Source: Escherichia phage Barry
Reading direction: 5' to 3' (one strand)
DNA length: 64,000 nt
Sequence record: LR880803
The translations under genes were made by a program, and so were the position numbers. Shown one piece after another: positions 12,653 through 61,629 of this stretch; within the stretch, counting starts at the first letter, position 1; each line of letters begins with the position of its first letter. The notes under the pieces were generated by a model that was not told where the DNA came from, did no database searches, and worked only from the letters and a program-made list of their open reading frames with translations.

Positions 12653-13759
12653 ATGTTGACTAATTCTGAAAAAAGCAGATTTTTACTTGCTGACCTGACT
12701 CGTGAAGTCCAGTCTATCCCAAACACTTATGGGTATATTTCCAACTTAGGTCTGTTCCGTTCAGCACCACAAACTCAGACAACCTTCCTGATGGACTTGA
12801 CAGATTGGGATATCAGCTTGCTTGATGCTGTAGACCGCACTAGCCGTAAAGCTGAAACAAGTGCTCCTGAGCGTGTTCGTCAAATCAGCTTCCCAATGAT
12901 GTACTTCAAGGAAGTTGAAAGCATTACTCCTGATGAGATTCAGGGTGTACGTCAGCCAGGTACTGCAAATGAACTAACCACTGAAGCTATCGTTCGTGCT
13001 AAGAAGCTGATGAAGATTCGCACCAAGTTCGATATTACTCGTGAGTTCTTGTTCATGCAAGCTCTGAAGGGTAAAGTTATCGACGCTAATGGTGTTCTGT
13101 ACGCAGACCTGTACAAACAGTTCGATGTAACTAAGAAGACTATCTACTTCGACCTTGACAATCCGAACTCTGATATTGATGCTCACATCGAAGACCTACG
13201 TATGCACATGGAAGACGAAGCTAAGACTGGTACTGTAATCAACGGTGAAGAGATTCACGTAGTTGTTGACAGAACTTTCTTCAGTAAACTTACCAAGCAT
13301 CCGAAGATTCGTGACGCATACCTTGCACAGCAGACTCCGCTGGCATGGCAACAGATTACTGGCTCTCTGAGAACTGGTGGTTCTGATGGTGTTCAGTCTC
13401 ATATGAACACGTTCTACTACGGTGGTGTTAAGTTTGTCCAGTACAACGGTAAGTTCAAAGACAAGCGCGGCAAGACCCATACTCTGGTTAGCATCGATGG
13501 TGTTACTCAGGATGGAACTGTAGGTGTAGGGCACGCTTTCCCTAACGTTTCTATGCTTGGTGAAGCAAACAACATCTTTGAAGTAGCTTACGCTCCATGT
13601 CCGAAGATGGGCTACGCAAATACTCTGGGGCAGGAGTTGTACGTATTTGAATACGAAAAAGACCGTGATGAAGGTATTGACTTCGAAGCTCACTCTTACA
13701 TGCTGCCATACTGCACACGTCCTCAACTGCTGGTTGACGTTCGCTCAGACTCTGAGTAA
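12653..13759 (+). CDS. major capsid protein
   Basis: 368-aa ORF after protease/scaffold with highly expressed-type codon usage; canonical position in the head module. Confidence 0.7.
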   Translation: MLTNSEKSRFLLADLTREVQSIPNTYGYISNLGLFRSAPQTQTTFLMDLTDWDISLLDAVDRTSRKAETSAPERVRQISFPMMYFKEVESITPDEIQGVRQPGTANELTTEAIVRAKKLMKIRTKFDITREFLFMQALKGKVIDANGVLYADLYKQFDVTKKTIYFDLDNPNSDIDAHIEDLRMHMEDEAKTGTVINGEEIHVVVDRTFFSKLTKHPKIRDAYLAQQTPLAWQQITGSLRTGGSDGVQSHMNTFYYGGVKFVQYNGKFKDKRGKTHTLVSIDGVTQDGTVGVGHAFPNVSMLGEANNIFEVAYAPCPKMGYANTLGQELYVFEYEKDRDEGIDFEAHSYMLPYCTRPQLLVDVRSDSE

Positions 13760-17500: not shown

Positions 17501-17511
17501 TAAATCCTATA

Positions 17512-17545
17512 AGGGGGAGACTTTAAAAGGTCTTCCCCTTTTTTG
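17512..17545 (+). terminator. rho-independent terminator
   Basis: Hairpin ggggagac-tttaaaag-gtcttcccc followed by TTTTTT. Confidence 0.6.
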
Positions 17546-27381: not shown

Positions 27382-27389
27382 TTTCTTTA

Positions 27390-27412
27390 CAGGGGCTTTA
27401 TAGCCCCTTTTA
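27390..27412 (+). terminator. rho-independent terminator
   Basis: Hairpin aggggct-ttata-gcccct followed by TTTT. Confidence 0.5.
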
Positions 27413-27427
27413 AGAGGAAAATTTATA

Positions 27428-33056: not shown

Positions 33057-33356
33057 TTAATCTGCCAACCTTAAATTAAAATTAACACCAAATTTTTCAC
33101 ATACTTCCAACATATACTCAAGGGAGACATTACCAGTGAGATGAATTATGTTGGACACACGAGCCTGAGAGATACCACAAATTTTAGCAACTTGCTCTTG
33201 AGAAAGACCTCTGGATTTAATCTCTCTCTTAAAACGATGTGCAACGAAGTCTCTCATTTCGTCTACATCCATTGGACAAATATAACTCTCCATTTCAGCC
33301 TCTCTATCAGCCTCCCAATCATCTTGTGGGGCATAAGGGTCAAAAACCTCATTCAT
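33057..33356 (-). CDS. helix-turn-helix DNA-binding protein (XRE-like)
   Basis: HTH motif SQEQVAKICGISQARVSNIIH; start placed at the internal Met to avoid overlap. Confidence 0.45.
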   Translation of the reverse strand: MNEVFDPYAPQDDWEADREAEMESYICPMDVDEMRDFVAHRFKREIKSRGLSQEQVAKICGISQARVSNIIHLTGNVSLEYMLEVCEKFGVNFNLRLAD

Positions 33357-33946: not shown

Positions 33947-34040
33947 AATGACCTCAAAGTTATATTAAATTTTGTATTACATTGAGTATAAAAATAAGCT
34001 ATAACACCTGACTTGTCAACAGATTTTATAGCTTATTTGG

Positions 34041-38138: not shown

Positions 38139-38199
38139 AAGCCCTCCTATATAAGATATAGTATAAGGTACTCTTCCCTGAGCACCTTGTCAATACTAA

Positions 38200-38760
38200 T
38201 CAGTGTACCTCATACCAGCTTTTACCAACCTTACCAGTACCTGTAACAAGTGTTTCTTTCTTAAGACCTAAGTTCTTAGAAGCTTGTCCATAATACCAGT
38301 CAGTAACTGCCTTCACCTCTGCCGTCATACTTTCTGGGCATTCCCAACTTGTCTCGTCGTGATAGGAGCACAATAAACGAGCACCTATAGCTGGTTTACG
38401 ACCGTTCAACTTCATCAAACCTTCGTCAATCATACGACGGCAAGCAAGGTTAATTGCTTCATTCTGAACCTGCGCCTCACTACCCATAAGTGTGTAATTC
38501 AATAACTTATGTGGAGATTTACACCATAACCACGCTCCAGCGACCTGAATGTACCCACCCTTAGCGATTGCAGCACTCTTGCCGAAAACCTCTTCTAATG
38601 CCTTCTTAGTGGCCTTAAAATCGGCTTCTAAGTTATCAAGTAGTTTCTTAATCTTTGGTAGACGCATATAGTAGGTCTGCTTAGTCAATGCACCTTCCTC
38701 TGTAGAAGCTGCCTTAATGGTTTTGGCAAACTTCTCATCACCTGCACCGAACAATACATC
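38200..38760 (-). CDS. DNA polymerase (family A, T7-like), 3' exon carrying second half of motif B and motif C
   Basis: Begins (L)FGAGDEKFAK (T7 YGAGDEK) and has motif C LCSYHDE; no ATG start and an in-frame TGA just upstream, so it must be joined to the upstream exon. Confidence 0.7.
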   Translation of the reverse strand, partial: DVLFGAGDEKFAKTIKAASTEEGALTKQTYYMRLPKIKKLLDNLEADFKATKKALEEVFGKSAAIAKGGYIQVAGAWLWCKSPHKLLNYTLMGSEAQVQNEAINLACRRMIDEGLMKLNGRKPAIGARLLCSYHDETSWECPESMTAEVKAVTDWYYGQASKNLGLKKETLVTGTGKVGKSWYEVH

Positions 38761-39565
38761 TGGTCAATACACTCGCAAGGTGTACCAGTTCTCTTATGAA
38801 CTTCTCCGCATTTCTACGGAGTGTCGGACTATATCACGTAGTAGTAATACTACCGTTGCACTTGGGAATGGTCATTAGCTTACCACCCTACTCTACTCAG
38901 TTCATACATTAAGTATGCTTTTCGATAGTCTCTGAACGTTTCTCTGTTAGGAACTCTAAAATACTATTATTTACTAAGGTATGCAATTGCTCTCTTCATG
39001 TTCTCTATACTATCTGAGAACAGCCCAAGACCTCTGTTACAGTTGTGACACAGCATACCTCTTACCTGTCCTGTTTTGTGGTCATGGTCAACAACCAGCT
39101 TGGCTTTATGTCTTGAACCATCCATGATAAAACCTTCACCACCGCAGATTTGACACTTGTGACCACACTTACTTAGTAACTCTTCGACCTCTTCTCTTTC
39201 TAAGCCGTAAGTCCTTAAGTAATAGTTCTTTACCCTTCCCTTTTCTCCACAAGCAGAACTGCAATACGTCTGTCTTGCTGTTCTAGGTGTAAACTGGTTA
39301 TTGCAACTTGGACATATTTTCTCTATGACACGACTTGCTGCTCTTCTGTCTACTTCAAGAACGCAGTTTCTACAACGTTTTTGATTGTACTGATATGGCT
39401 TAAACTCTTCGCCACATCTGGAACAAACTCTTTCTTTATAACCTGCCATTGTCTCTCTCCCATTTCTACTATAGGAGTCCTAACAGAGACTTCGCTGCTG
39501 ATTACCATATCTTTTAAGACTTAGGCTTCCAGCAATTCACAACGTTTTACATGCGCCACTGACGC
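38761..39565 (-). other. intervening sequence (probable self-splicing intron) in the DNA polymerase gene
   Basis: ~0.8 kb separates ...AKNGIY from ...FGAGDEK at the same point in motif B and carries a free-standing HNH ORF; exact splice sites not determined. Confidence 0.55.
38967..39449 (-). CDS. HNH homing endonuclease (intron-encoded)
   Basis: HNH motif VVDHDHKTGQVRGMLCHNCNRGLG and N-terminal CxxC zinc-binding pairs; lies wholly within the polymerase intervening sequence. Confidence 0.75.
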   Translation of the reverse strand: MAGYKERVCSRCGEEFKPYQYNQKRCRNCVLEVDRRAASRVIEKICPSCNNQFTPRTARQTYCSSACGEKGRVKNYYLRTYGLEREEVEELLSKCGHKCQICGGEGFIMDGSRHKAKLVVDHDHKTGQVRGMLCHNCNRGLGLFSDSIENMKRAIAYLSK

Positions 39566-41704
39566 ATAGATACCATTCTTAGCCTTCTTACGGCCTTTAG
39601 TTATCTCGTGAAGGAGTTCCTCATCCTGTGTCTCTCTACAACGGATAATATCTTCTTCTTTGTTCAATGCAAAATAGATACTGTTAAGTGTATGCGCATC
39701 AGTACCTGTGTAGACTTCATACAAATCATTATCAGCATCGTAACGACAATATTTATCAGCCTCTGGATTTAGGTACTTATCAAGATGCTTGCAGTAGTAT
39801 CGTCCATCATCCTGTTTAGTGAACTCTACAAACTCTTTACCTTCAGTTACCGCTTTGGTGAAGTCTTTATCACCCATAAAGTTACACAGTAAAACAAGCT
39901 GTGCAGAGTTCTGGTCAACTGAAACGATATTAGTCCCTTCCTCACAAATCCACACCTCCCTCATAGGTGCTCCATAGACAGCAGCACCAGACGGTACGTT
40001 TACAATACCATATTGTGTCATACGTCCAGTTGAAGTACCAAACACCATTGCACCAGCACTAAGGCGACCATCTGGACGAATCTGGTTCAACCAACCTTTT
40101 TCATCATCCTTTGAGTTCTCAATAGTTCTGCGTCGGTGCATCAAAGTATAGTACTTAGCAATCTTCTGTCCAAGTTCACCTTCAATCGTATCATAAGATG
40201 ATTCAGTAAGTTTTGGTGAAGTACGGATTAAGCAAGGCTCAAGCAAATCTGTGTACTTCTTCACAGACCAGTTATGCTCAATGTACTGTACACCTTCATG
40301 TTCAACATAACTCAAACCACACCGCTCAACCATTTCCTGCCACTTAGGATGTTTTGTAATCATCTTTTTATTGTCTTTGAAACGACAAACTTTGACAGGG
40401 CGACCATCAGAGTCTTTCTTGTAGTTCCAGTCATCTGGAATCCAACCAACTGATTTCAAGTAGTCTTTAACAACTGCTACCTGAGTCATACGAGAAACTT
40501 CAAACTCAATTGGTGTATATGGTGCATCAATCAAACCTGTGTAGCGACTTGACTCAAGTTCAAAGTGGTTAACAACGTGGCTGTTATAATACTTCACAGT
40601 TTTAACTGTTTTTACTGGCTTCCAGTCTTTGCATTTCTTACCAATCTTTGCGTTCAACTCATTGCAAATTGCACGAGCATCCTTCATTGCTACAAAGCCT
40701 TCCTTGTACTCTTCACCAGTTACAGTGTTGGTTGGTGTATAGCAATTCCTTTTTTCAATGTTAAAAATCTTTGTAGTTGGCTTACCAAATGGTTTGATTT
40801 CGTATGTCTGCATCTCGCCATTACGTACCTGCTGACGATACTTTGTCTTAGGGTACTTGGTAATTCTTTTCAGTCCATCTGCATGACCAAATGTTTCAAC
40901 ATACTCATTCCAAGCTTTTGCAAACTCTTCTCCAGTAACTTTACCTTTAGTCTTAATAGTTGGAGGAAGATGTGGTTCAACTTCTGAAGCAAGCTCATTA
41001 GTCAACTTGTCAAGTTCCTTTACATGGAACTCCATAAGCTCTTTATCAGCTTTCCAACCATTGATAGCTTGTTGACTCATCCAGAAAGATGTTTCTTTAG
41101 CTCGCATGTAAGTTTCATAAGTGTCTATACCACACTTCTTAAGCTTGAGATACTCGTTATCAAGTGCCCGTTTAGTTTTGGCGTTAATACGGATATCTTC
41201 TACAACACGAGTGAAGATTTCTGCATTCCACACACCCCAATGTTCAATCTCTGGTTTACGGACACCAACACGAGCACCCCATGCAGCCAAACCATGAGCA
41301 CCTTTATAACCCTTTGGAGTTGGCCTATCCATCCACTGAACACGAGACTGGATAAGAGAATCCTGAAAGAAATTACTCCACGGCTTACATTTTGGATTAT
41401 CAAAATTCCATAAATCAGGTGCAATGTGATTGAAAACCCACCAGTCATATCCGAGACCATTATGGATGCAAAGACGTTTTGCCTTTAACGCAAACTCAAT
41501 ACCTTCTCGTAAGCCACCCTTAATGTACTTAGTGTACTTGTGACCGAGGATAGGCTCATCTGTAAAGACCCATACAGGTGGCTCTTCATCGTCAGATTTA
41601 TAGTCTGCAAAGGCCATTACGTGAACTTTAGTGAACTCAAGGAGTAAACCATCAGTTTCTGTATCACCAACCAAATGTAAGTTTTTAAAATCTACGTTTT
41701 CCAT
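39566..41704 (-). CDS. DNA polymerase (family A, T7-like), 5' exon with 3'-5' exonuclease domain and first half of motif B
   Basis: Exo I motif VGDTETDGL; ends RKKAKNGIY (T7 RDNAKTFIY); ATG at 41704 with SD gaggga. Confidence 0.75.
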
Positions 41705-41734
41705 TTTTACTCCCTCTAAAACCATTAACCTCAT

Positions 41735-41961
41735 ACATTACTGCAAAAAATTATAAAAAGCAAGTTGACAATGCACTTGACAAGGTGTTAATCTTTGCGA
41801 AGTGGGTTTTTACTTAAAAGGTTACTTAACAGTTTAACTATACAGATACTTTAAAACTCTTAAAAGATTATTTAATAGCTTTTAAAAAGCTTTAAAGTAT
41901 AACGTATAGAATACGTTAAGATAAAAGATTAAAACTTAATAGTTACTTAAAAGAGGCTTAC
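41735..41961. promoter_or_regulatory. AT-rich divergent control region with TTGACAAGGTG promoter motif, ttacttaa repeats and a palindrome
   Basis: Between the divergent polymerase (minus) and 41962 (plus) genes; cacTTGACAAGGTGtta at 41774-41790; repeated ttacttaa(a/c)ag; inverted repeat aacgtata/atacgtt. Confidence 0.4.
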
Positions 41962-42384
41962 ATGCAGAAAATGTTTGTTCACCCAGACATAGCTGACTTT
42001 GTTAGAGCTTTGCAGAAGTTGGAAGAACTTGACATTGCTGCTCAACGGGAATATGCTCACCATCACAGGAGAATGGTTGATATACAACATGAAATAGAGT
42101 TGTCTGAAAACTATGAAGATGACTTGAAATGCTCTGTATTTGAGCATATGAAAGATGTTGCTACAGCTAGACGTAAAGCTAAAGACACAGTTGCTTTACT
42201 AGATTCTCTTAAAAAGAGGTTGCAAAGTGGTACAGACCTGTGTAATCTAGCGTCACTGATTAACGATGTTGAAACTTCTTGGGATAGGCACTATTATCCA
42301 CGTTCTGAAAAGACACTTGACTTTTCTTCATCCGAAAACTTAAAATGTTCTAGAAAGAAACTTAACCAACTGAGAGAGAAATAA
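41962..42384 (+). CDS. hypothetical protein
   Basis: 140-aa ORF, first gene of the plus-strand block. Confidence 0.45.
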   Translation: MQKMFVHPDIADFVRALQKLEELDIAAQREYAHHHRRMVDIQHEIELSENYEDDLKCSVFEHMKDVATARRKAKDTVALLDSLKKRLQSGTDLCNLASLINDVETSWDRHYYPRSEKTLDFSSSENLKCSRKKLNQLREK

Positions 42385-42385
42385 T

Positions 42386-43186
42386 ATGAATATCGATGTA
42401 GAAAAGATGCTTGAAGAAAAAGGTATTGACGAAGCATTTTTAATCAATGCCGTAGAAAGCATGGCTATGATTCTTCGTGGGAACAACTACACAGAACAGT
42501 TTATGCCTGCAAGCTATAATCTGCCTAAAGACAAGTCTGATAACGGTGCTTTTGCAGAACAGGTCAACATGATGCTGACAGACACTACACTTGCTTTGGC
42601 ATCTATAGTCGTAGGTGTTGATGCTCTTGCAGAGTTCATTTTTAAGGAGATGCAGAAAAATGATTATATCTCCCTTAACTCTGAAGAAAAGGACTTGTTA
42701 CTGTCATTAGGTAATAATGAGTTAATTTCCATGATAATTTCATCAACAAGTGCTGTTATGGCTGCTCTTGAGAAGCGAATGGAAGAGAAGCTGTCACGAT
42801 ATGAAAAACTTGATTGGGGGGTAGAAGAACTAAACCCACGAATCCAAGAAATTATCCAGCAAACTAAAGATTCTTTGGAAGAAGCTGTTGAAAATGACTC
42901 TGTAGCTGATATAGAACCACTTCAGGTGAAAGTTGCACTGATGATTCCAGCTATCTCTACGATGATGAATATCGTTGCACTAATCCAACTTTCGCAGATG
43001 ATGGGTATGAGTATTGAGTTCATTGAGGAGATGACTGGCGGTGTCAGTATGCAAGCAATCAATGATGTTTTGGTGAACATTGGTGCTTCAATCATTGAAG
43101 AGAAACTACGTATTAACTTCGGTGATGATTTTGTGAAGCAACTCTCAGCTATGGCTGAAAAAGAGTCTGCTGAGCAACTGCACTAA
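42386..43186 (+). CDS. hypothetical protein
   Basis: 266-aa acidic helical ORF. Confidence 0.45.
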   Translation: MNIDVEKMLEEKGIDEAFLINAVESMAMILRGNNYTEQFMPASYNLPKDKSDNGAFAEQVNMMLTDTTLALASIVVGVDALAEFIFKEMQKNDYISLNSEEKDLLLSLGNNELISMIISSTSAVMAALEKRMEEKLSRYEKLDWGVEELNPRIQEIIQQTKDSLEEAVENDSVADIEPLQVKVALMIPAISTMMNIVALIQLSQMMGMSIEFIEEMTGGVSMQAINDVLVNIGASIIEEKLRINFGDDFVKQLSAMAEKESAEQLH

Positions 43187-57056: not shown

Positions 57057-57614
57057 ATGAATTACGAACTAATATATAATGCAATTATTAAGAAGGCACA
57101 TTCTGAAAGGGGTGTGCCTCTTACATACTACAAATGTCAAGGTAAGGGTTATGAAAGACACCATATCATACCAGTATGTCTAGGTGGCGATAAAATTAGT
57201 GGAGATAATATTGCTTTACTTACACCTAGAGAGCATTATATAGCTCATAAACTACTGGTTAAGATGTATCCAAACAATCATAAGTTATGGTTTGCATGGA
57301 ACAGGCTAGCTCATGATGGCCTAGATAGGAAAATATCATCCAGAGACTATGAAAAGGTAAGGGCTTTGAACTCGAAAGCTCTATCTATTGTGAATAAAGG
57401 TAGGGTTTTCACTGAAGAACATCGAAGACGATTAGGAGAATCTCAAATAGGCAATACAAAGTCAAAAGGTTGTAAGAGGTCTATAGAAACAAGGAAGAAG
57501 ATGTCAGAAGCCGGAAAAAAGCCAAAGAAAAAGAAAACTTGCCCTCATTGTGGCATGACTGGTGGTGCTGGTAACATGACTCGATATCATTTTGACAATT
57601 GTAAGAAAAAATAA
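57057..57614 (+). CDS. HNH homing endonuclease between nrdD and nrdG
   Basis: HNH motif YERHHIIPVCLGGDKISGDNIALLTPREHYIAH; C-terminal CPHC zinc-finger-like motif. Confidence 0.6.
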   Translation: MNYELIYNAIIKKAHSERGVPLTYYKCQGKGYERHHIIPVCLGGDKISGDNIALLTPREHYIAHKLLVKMYPNNHKLWFAWNRLAHDGLDRKISSRDYEKVRALNSKALSIVNKGRVFTEEHRRRLGESQIGNTKSKGCKRSIETRKKMSEAGKKPKKKKTCPHCGMTGGAGNMTRYHFDNCKKK

Positions 57615-57627
57615 CCTATGTAAAACT

Positions 57628-57656
57628 TGACAAGGTGATGTGGGTCTTGATAGGCT
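57628..57656 (+). promoter_or_regulatory. candidate promoter with extended -35 motif TTGACAAGGTG
   Basis: aacTTGACAAGGTGatg at 57625-57641, same motif as at 41777 and on the minus strand near 38190; -10 is weak. Confidence 0.3.
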
Positions 57657-57777
57657 TACATCACCTTTTTTATTGGATGTTATATATGGCAGAGAGTATT
57701 ATTGGGTTGTTCATAGGTTCTGTCTTACTAGGGTTCTTTTTAGGACTCTCTTATTGTGAATTGAGAGATAAGTTAAA

Positions 57778-61598: not shown

Positions 61599-61606
61599 AA
61601 CTTTAT

Positions 61607-61629
61607 AGGGGCTTAAAAGCCCCATTTTG
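61607..61629 (+). terminator. rho-independent terminator-like hairpin
   Basis: ggggcttaaaagcccc followed by ATTTTG. Confidence 0.4.

Follow-up and report, generated by a model that had tools for sequence, protein, structure and literature searches.

The primary origin of phage T7 consists of the tandem promoters phi1.1A and phi1.1B followed by an AT-rich stretch, and in oriF and oriG of phage T4 a middle promoter is combined with a downstream unwinding element. Protein p6 of phi29 binds DNA with a 12/24-bp periodicity, represses an early promoter and activates the origin. T7 also carries the SRL and SRR arrays beside its terminal repeats, reportedly described by Dunn and Studier in 1983 as arrays of the heptamer CCTAAAG; we know of no function for them. 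In the present study we analyzed the AT-rich gap at positions 41735-41961 of a 64,000-nt stretch of Escherichia phage Barry (record LR880803), hereafter called the window. This gap separates a leftward DNA polymerase gene from a block of rightward genes. A divergent promoter region has been assumed at the corresponding site of Felix O1, between genes 96 and 97, since 2010, and transcripts of open reading frames (ORFs) 96-99 were detected by reverse-transcription PCR (Whichard et al. 2010, PMC3185647). The same genome paper stated that promoters and temporal regulation of Felix O1 were unknown, and some GenBank records annotate promoters. Our comparison indicates that the gap is probably the transcriptional control region of two divergent operons for DNA replication and nucleotide metabolism.

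The length of 227 nt that the sequence-only reading gave for the gap holds between the longest ORFs, where the polymerase begins at ATG 41734. The true gap is probably 257 nt long (41705-41961), because a second start codon has a Shine-Dalgarno sequence and matches the annotated starts of relatives:

41704-41702, minus strand: probable true polymerase start ATG, preceded by Shine-Dalgarno GAGGGAG at 41716-41710; seen in the sequence and annotated as the start in Tribble, SUSP1 and Moogle.

The window was aligned with Felix O1, ASO1A, SUSP1, CHB7, Sf13, Moogle and Sf17, covering three genera (Felixounavirus, Suspvirus and Mooglevirus). The core of the gap (41756-41961) is 83-87% identical to Suspvirus and Mooglevirus. 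This is the same as the identity of the polymerase coding sequence to these two genera (84-86%) and far above that of third-codon positions (52-67%); the p180 gene to the right of the gap reaches 68-76% and the next gene 53-57%. Compared with Felix O1 the core is 100% identical, the polymerase gene 97% and the next-but-one gene 91%. The sole poorly conserved part of the gap is 41705-41755 (60-83%). Judged from this alignment, purifying selection acts on this non-coding core as strongly as on the polymerase gene. In Arno162 (Pectobacterium), P778 (Yersinia) and Erwinia Kolesnikviruses the gap sequence could not be aligned, and the order of its elements is retained: a TTGACA-17-TAnnnT promoter, a G-run, an array of short units, TAGAAT, further units and a Shine-Dalgarno sequence. 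The arrays of these phages hold five or six CT(T/A)(A/T)A(C/A/T)AG units every 11-13 bp.

Promoters were predicted by a position-weight sigma-70 scan of both strands of the gap in seven phages from six lineages:

41765-41794, plus strand: predicted promoter P1, with -35 TTGACA (41765-41770), an 18-nt spacer and extended -10 TGT-TAATCT (41786-41794); predicted start ~41800.
41763-41735, minus strand: predicted promoter Ppol, with -35 TTGCTT (41763-41758), a 17-nt spacer and -10 TAATGT (41740-41735); predicted start ~41728.
41744-41759, plus strand: A-tracts CAAAAAATTATAAAAA between Ppol and P1, UP-element-like for P1, with a predicted sharp bend.
41837-41864, minus strand: weak second candidate for a leftward promoter, TTTAAG-16-TATAGT; the ASO1A record annotates it as TTAAGA-15-TATAGT.

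P1 was the top sigma-70 match of the gap in every genus examined (11.2-13.4 bits), always as TTGACA, 17-18 nt and TAnnnT preceded by TG, and the ASO1A record has a promoter annotation at this site. Its block is almost invariant across the three aligned genera, and a strong TTGACA-17/18-TAnnnT was found at the same place in three more. A second TTGACA (41777-41782) falls within the 18-nt spacer of P1, and these two hexamers correspond to the promoter-like -35 elements that had been noticed from the letters. On the opposite strand, the T, A, G and T of the Ppol -10 element (TA..GT) are invariant in the three genera despite the variable surroundings (41705-41755). Ppol and P1 are predicted to lie back to back in the left third of the gap. 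Sigma-70-type -35 and -10 elements spaced by 16-18 nt were thereby found on both strands, ahead of both operons, and the GenBank records of ASO1A and AYO145A also annotate promoters on both strands of the gap. For the leftward direction Ppol is the best conserved candidate. The weak alternative (TTTAAG-16-TATAGT, 5.7 bits) keeps its place in the alignment of all three genera (Felix, Susp and Moogle). TATAAT at 41755-41750 was discarded as a promoter of the polymerase gene: no -35 lies at a workable distance from it, and the Susp and Moogle genera do not have it. The sequence AAAAAG immediately 5' of TTGACA is common to the paralogous cassettes described below. A curvature prediction, proposed earlier as a check on the gap, placed a sharp bend at the A-tracts 41744-41759 only. 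In a wedge model, curvature reaches 28.8 degrees per 30 bp at its peak (41746), which is the 99.9th percentile for the window, while the repeat array downstream is near the window mean. The A-tract periodicity of the array was not significant, and phased A-tract curvature of the array was rejected.

Beyond P1 the gap consists of an AT-rich leader filled with short direct units:

~41800-41961, plus strand: leader of the rightward operon, ~162 nt, 77% A+T, ending at ATG 41962.
41813-41897, plus strand: eight direct units (starts 41813, 41825, 41838, 41849, 41859, 41871, 41879 and 41890), mean spacing 11 bp.
41935-41957, plus strand: two further units (starts 41935 and 41946), running into the Shine-Dalgarno AAGAGG of the gene that starts at ATG 41962.
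41812-41823, plus strand: 12-mer box ACTTAAAAGGTT, including unit 1.
41873-41895, plus strand: paired half-sites TAATAGCTT-N5-AAGCTTTAA, a short hairpin or dyad whose stem is invariant or nearly so.

With 25.6% G+C, the region is AT-rich and lies between divergent genes, as first described. For genome-wide comparisons the whole genome (88.9 kb) was rebuilt by joining the flanks of phage Tribble to the window (window coordinate = Tribble - 13944). No other 150 nt of window or genome are as AT-rich as 41803-41952 (79.3%, next best 74.0%), and no other 100 bp are as unstable as 41850-41949, with -105 kcal/mol where the mean is -128.5 and the standard deviation 5.1. The leader holds ten CTWWWWAG-type units with an 8-bp core, spaced 8-13 bp from unit to unit. 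The TTACTTAA(A/C)AG repeats reported by the sequence-only reading belong to this set and were found in three copies (41810-41820, 41822-41832 and 41943-41953); 0.18 copies of TTACTTAA are expected, and none of 5000 dinucleotide shuffles of the region reached three. Seven copies of CTWWAHAG, a motif defined post hoc, occur in the region against 0.28 expected (0/5000 dinucleotide shuffles). Across the three genera, effectively three lineages, 72 of 80 positions are invariant in the units, which were defined on the window, and 28 of 51 in the spacers (Fisher P = 6e-6). Of the 40 positions of the CT..AG frame, 39 do not vary. The pair TWAWAGCTT / AAGCTWTWA within 30 nt occurs genome-wide only at 41873-41895 and at 33996-34034. 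A palindrome with 27-nt arms (41846-41900) was rejected as an element, and it is best regarded as a by-product of the near-palindromic units, because Mooglevirus has lost the outer pairs without compensating changes.

These data bear on the simplest alternative, namely that the gap is a functionless spacer in which repeats and palindromes arose by chance in AT-rich DNA. It would agree with the chance-level A-tract periodicity, with the frequency of sigma-70-like matches in the genome and with the 8-bp palindrome of the region, which by itself is within chance for the composition (P = 0.2, shuffles). The conservation data contradict it. The 83-87% identity across three genera exceeds synonymous identity, the core is unchanged in Felix O1, the units go far beyond shuffle expectation, variation is concentrated in the unit spacers, and the architecture is retained in genera without alignable sequence. 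We regard the spacer explanation as very improbable.

Between the eight direct units and the last two lies a dyad that may connect the leader with a phage-encoded regulator:

41900-41918, plus strand: dyad TAACGTAT-AGA-ATACGTTA, 19 bp, candidate operator or RNA hairpin.
41907-41912, plus strand: -10-like TAGAAT of a putative promoter P2, embedded in the dyad.
33057-33356, minus strand: Cro/CI-type helix-turn-helix protein, 99 aa, in the leftward operon (Pfam HTH_3, E = 6e-10).

The inverted repeat AACGTATAGAATACGTT noted earlier was located at 41901-41917, inside the full dyad, which is a single copy in the genome. Support for the dyad comes from conservation with compensatory changes, the palindrome alone being within chance. 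One pair is changed on both sides from C:G to T:A in Moogle, Sf17 and the metagenomic relative L040, and the outer pair is changed on both sides from A:T to T:A between Felix and the others. Suspvirus, Arno162 and Yersinia phage P778 have TAGAAT in the corresponding position; its counterpart is TAACAT in Mooglevirus and TAAGAT or TATAAT in Kolesnikvirus. The P2 -10-like hexamer is conserved well beyond the dyad-bearing clade, and P2 has a good -35 only in the distant genera (9.4-11.5 bits there). A reading of AGCTTTA-N12-TAGAAT as a T4 MotA box was set aside. No T4-like polymerase-modifying proteins are reported in the genome paper of Felix O1 (PMC3185647); no search for a MotA homologue was made here.

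Further evidence concerns the helix-turn-helix protein. A tblastn search with it returned 260 records, all from the Felix/Susp/Moogle clade except two weak Zymomonas matches; there was no tblastn match in Erwinia, Pectobacterium and Yersinia phages, which also lack the dyad. Among nine phages, residues 73-75 read x-(T/N/S)-G where the dyad contains ACGTAT and D-P-Q where it contains ATGTAT, and residue 58 is K (once M) with the former and I/T with the latter. In its predicted layout the site resembles Cro/CI operators, which combine a dyad of 14-20 bp over a promoter element with a helix-turn-helix gene in the same genome. The helix-turn-helix protein may be considered a candidate trans-acting factor for the dyad. 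The leftward promoter upstream of the helix-turn-helix gene block (33996-34034) is bracketed by inverted half-sites, AAGCTATAA ... TTATAGCTT.

The dyad could equally be read as an RNA hairpin, and the conserved part of the gap might act as RNA: P1 would produce an AU-rich leader that serves stability or translation, for example through the CUUAAAAG units as sites for a phage protein or for ribosomal protein S1. The units do lie on the transcribed strand downstream of P1 in direct orientation in all genera, and the last one merges into the Shine-Dalgarno sequence, as at other genes. The two compensatory pairs of the dyad are a classic hairpin signature. Compared with shuffles, folding is slightly better for the plus-strand leader (z = -2.07) but not for the minus strand (z = +0.98). 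A z of -2 is weak, however, and covariation contributes no more than -0.63 to the alignment fold, entirely through the small dyad hairpin. No Rfam family matched the region (scan of 41500-42200, best E at least 0.49, far below gathering scores). Neither the 27-nt-arm palindrome nor a pairing of the 5' end with the Shine-Dalgarno is conserved in other genera; the latter, seen in the minimum-free-energy fold of the P1 transcript, is broken there and absent from the alignment fold, and was rejected. If P2 is active, most of the array lies outside the messenger RNA, and in an ORF-free field elsewhere in the genome (see below) units occur in both orientations. Since unit orientation has no clear bias, DNA-level and RNA-level roles of the units cannot be separated. 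A conserved boxA (CGCUCUUA) followed by a hairpin with 5-bp stem and 5-nt loop, as in a lambda nut site, was not found. The stretch CUCUUAAAA at 41857-41865 matches lambda nutL. The nut-like reading was rejected because the CUC of the boxA-like stretch is not conserved: it varies in relatives (CT, GT, CC, GA, AC), and only CUUAAAAG is constant. An action of the AU-rich leader in translation or stability is possible, and we consider the RNA explanation of the conserved part as a whole doubtful.

The promoter and leader of the gap are members of a family:

Tribble 2612-2720: cassette, defined by the shared promoter-leader layout.
Tribble 13010-13185: second cassette, on the same basis.
Window 41745-41965: third cassette, on the same basis, comprising P1 and its leader.
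Window 57606-57662, plus strand: related promoter, TTGACA-18-TAGGCT then GTGGGT, 12.7 bits, sharing the exact block CTTGACAAGGTG with P1.

The three cassettes, with tandem TTGACA and an upstream A-tract at Tribble 2629, at Tribble 13030 and in this gap, each head a rightward block. Besides the sequence elements AAAAAAG, TTGACAA-N5-(C)TTGACA, TAnnnT and ACTTAAAAGGTT, each of them has more units, a dyad and a unit that merges with the Shine-Dalgarno. The genome has one other divergent gap, between genes 40/41 in Felix O1 numbering; it holds the cassette at Tribble 13030, which stands at the head of morphogenesis genes. ACTTAAAAGGTT occurs in exactly three copies in 88.9 kb, each 17-37 nt downstream of a cassette's -10. 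Near the related promoter a further TTGACAA lies 35 nt upstream (window 57592-57662).

The unit itself is distributed genome-wide. The 9.3 kb of noncoding DNA hold 50 strict CTWWWWAG sites, where ~5 are expected from composition (~10-fold enrichment), and the 79.5 kb of coding DNA likewise hold 50, where 38 are expected. Units are fused to the Shine-Dalgarno at other genes too (CTTTTAAGAGG, CTTATAAGAGG). Terminator-like hairpins at 27385-27414, 61601-61625 and 17510-17545 carry a unit as loop (GGGGCTTTATAGCCCC, GGGGCTTAAAAGCCCC) together with flanking units. Outside the window, two convergent gene blocks enclose an ORF-free field of 1.6 kb (Tribble 3730-5311). Dozens of CTTAAAAG / CCTATAAAG, CTATATAG and CTGTTAAG units, the last being the reverse complement of CTTAACAG, fill it, and units have both orientations there; strict CTWWWWAG sites number 17, and A+T reaches ~73% in two segments. 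This field could be an origin, a terminus-associated array or a binding-site sink.

A search with window 41000-43000 matched 258 phage records, the best being Escherichia phage vB_Eco_Tribble (99.7%). All close matches belong to Felixounavirus (Ounavirinae), and the window was assigned to this genus accordingly. To the left of the gap, annotated relatives carry genes for DNA polymerase, DNA ligase, the helix-turn-helix regulator, DHFR and thymidylate synthase. To the right follow Felix01p180 (140 aa), a 'minor tail protein' gene (p181), dNMP kinase, primase/helicase and exonuclease. As divergent operons of both kinds flank it, the gap is the hinge of the replication and nucleotide-metabolism modules. 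Neither p180 nor p181, the proteins downstream of the gap, has a Pfam domain. For p180 only a PHROG of unknown function was found, and its structure model, a predicted helical hairpin, has no significant PDB match. The model of p181 is all-helical with a predicted local distance difference test (pLDDT) score of 45, too poor for use. The 'minor tail protein' label of 42386-43186 (PHROG 4251 and GenBank records) looks doubtful in this replication-module setting and for a protein without Pfam domain. In CRISPRi-ART experiments with SUSP1, the p181 homologue gp048 scored 'Fit' and the p180 homologue gp047 'Not Fit'. PhageMaP (Bas63) and CRISPRi-ART (SUSP1) report gene fitness only and nothing concerning the gap.

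The polymerase gene of the window (minus strand, 38200-41704) is split into an N-terminal part (39521-41704) and a C-terminal part (38200-38754), with an HNH / endonuclease VII-type ORF (38967-39449) between them. A split polymerase is also found in Tribble, FSL SP-010 and the metagenomic relative L056; in ASO1A, Felix O1, SUSP1 and Moogle the gene is one uninterrupted 2.7-kb frame. A third TTGACAAGGTG was seen at 38193 on the minus strand, upstream of the C-terminal polymerase fragment. A tRNA-like cluster at 1092-5385 of the window has its own A-tract and TTGACAA promoters at 1110 and 1201, and the GenBank record of UAB_Phi87 begins within the corresponding region.

The position of the gap between polymerase and primase-helicase genes also raises the possibility that it is, or is also, a transcription-primed origin of replication, which would be compatible with a control region. 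P1 would transcribe the G-rich start GAAGTGGG into easily unwound DNA, an RNA-DNA hybrid would prime the PolA-type polymerase, the T7-gp4-like primase-helicase would load, and the repeated units might be binding sites for an origin factor. Both the AT-richest 150 nt and the 100 bp of lowest stability in the genome, a candidate for an AT-rich unwinding element, are indeed located here, directly downstream of the conserved P1, so that this promoter points into DNA of 77-79% A+T beyond ~41800. Direct repeats at roughly one helical turn and a conservation that is extreme for non-coding DNA fit as well, and the architecture recalls the T7 primary origin and T4 oriF/oriG. On the other hand, the cassette of promoter, G-run and units is present three times per genome, and the units are enriched throughout noncoding DNA, including ribosome-binding sites and terminator loops. 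Origin-specific repeats of 17-22 bp, as in iteron origins, were not found in the gap, the units being 8 bp. No initiator-like protein was recognisable next door (Pfam, PHROG, structure model of p180), and as an origin candidate the 1.6-kb ORF-free field is no worse. GC skew, named in the sequence-only reading as a check, was rejected as an origin signal. It is positive from 1 to 31 kb, negative only in the minus-strand block (31-41.7 kb) and positive again rightward; it tracks gene orientation everywhere, not distance from the gap, and therefore holds no independent replication signal. We found no origin mapping for these phages in the literature. Taken together, an origin at this site is unlikely, if by no means far-fetched. 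Of the earlier proposal of a control region, an origin or both, the control region is well supported, with operon heads, conserved promoter elements on two strands and purifying selection in its favour, and the origin is neither borne out nor refuted.

If the gap is a control region, host RNA polymerase would start early at Ppol (leftward, into the polymerase gene) and at P1 (rightward). The phased units and the dyad would be cis-acting DNA sites through which a bound regulator controls P2 and blocks or modulates the transcripts from P1. For the dyad, the Cro/CI-type helix-turn-helix protein from the leftward operon would be the best candidate regulator. The outcome would be timed expression of p180, p181, dNMP kinase and primase-helicase. 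Several observations weigh against this interpretation. The window contains 54 sigma-70 sites of at least 10 bits compared with 33 +/- 6 in shuffles. The matches in the gap are singly no better than many chance sites, and Ppol is weak. Because matches of P1 strength are common by chance, the promoter call rests on position, conservation and paralogy. Whichard et al. found no recognisable promoter in the gap (PMC3185647), and no 5'-end mapping for any member of the Ounavirinae was found in the literature. The position-weight scan gave no usable -35 for P2 in this phage. No factor was identified as reader of the CTWWWWAG units, which have no clear genome-wide bias of orientation relative to gene direction. 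The link between helix-turn-helix protein and dyad amounts to one evolutionary event and one phyletic co-occurrence, and since the residue and dyad changes form a single event the pairing is a lead, not proof.

In the literature searched we found no description of the back-to-back pair Ppol/P1 whose spacer holds another TTGACA, of the three paralogous cassettes, of CTWWWWAG as a unit spread genome-wide, of the conserved TAGAAT inside the leader or of the pairing of dyad and helix-turn-helix protein. Felix O1-like phages are widely used for typing of Salmonella and E. coli, for biocontrol and in therapy. The map offered here comprises two predicted back-to-back promoters, a three-cassette family, a noncoding 8-mer and a candidate operator-regulator pair. 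By itself it reveals no new kind of biology; should it be confirmed, it would account for the on and off switching of the replication genes and would supply parts for phage engineering. By analogy with phi29, one might go further and suppose that the CTWWWWAG units are sites of an uncharacterised Ounavirinae-wide factor, which would coat the leaders of the three cassettes and the 1.6-kb field as a phased nucleoprotein array. It would shut off early host-polymerase transcription and, at the least-stable site in this gap, open the DNA for replication initiation. We hold such a p6-like switch to be improbable. If true, it would couple transcription and replication in an enterobacterial myovirus without known temporal regulator.

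Comparison with the known systems can be made point by point. As in the phi29 p6 complex, and by analogy only, a phased array is located just beyond a predicted early promoter and could couple transcription shut-off with replication; p6 reads bendability and not a motif, and no p6-like protein was identified here. With iteron origins (lambda ori, plasmid oriV) the gap shares direct repeats about one helical turn apart beside an AT-rich segment. It differs from them in the 8-bp instead of 17-22-bp core, in the genome-wide noncoding dispersal of the units, and in having neither a recognisable adjacent initiator gene nor DnaA boxes. As in the T7 primary origin and T4 oriF/oriG, a promoter is aimed into the most easily melted DNA, and as in T7 the site lies in the replication cluster and the phage has a gp4-like primase-helicase and a polymerase of the PolA type; here, unlike in these origins, the promoter is of host type, the module is triplicated and GC skew carries no replication signal. 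The T7 SRL/SRR arrays likewise consist of short, A-rich, non-coding C(C)T-A/T-run-AG units every 10-13 bp, the closest counterpart being the 1.6-kb field, whereas the units of this gap sit in promoter leaders. In lambda PR/PRM with OR and in the early regions of T4 and T5, back-to-back sigma-70-type promoters generally head two operons, as is predicted here. The gap departs from these early regions in its predicted long leader with ten 8-bp direct units and in the second TTGACA within the P1 spacer, and from lambda OR in having a single dyad instead of an operator set. Like the early regions of phages that use host polymerase, it has an A-tract or curved segment upstream of a predicted strong promoter, and like lambda-type regions it appears to place a dyad over a -10 element, with a Cro/CI-type helix-turn-helix protein encoded nearby.

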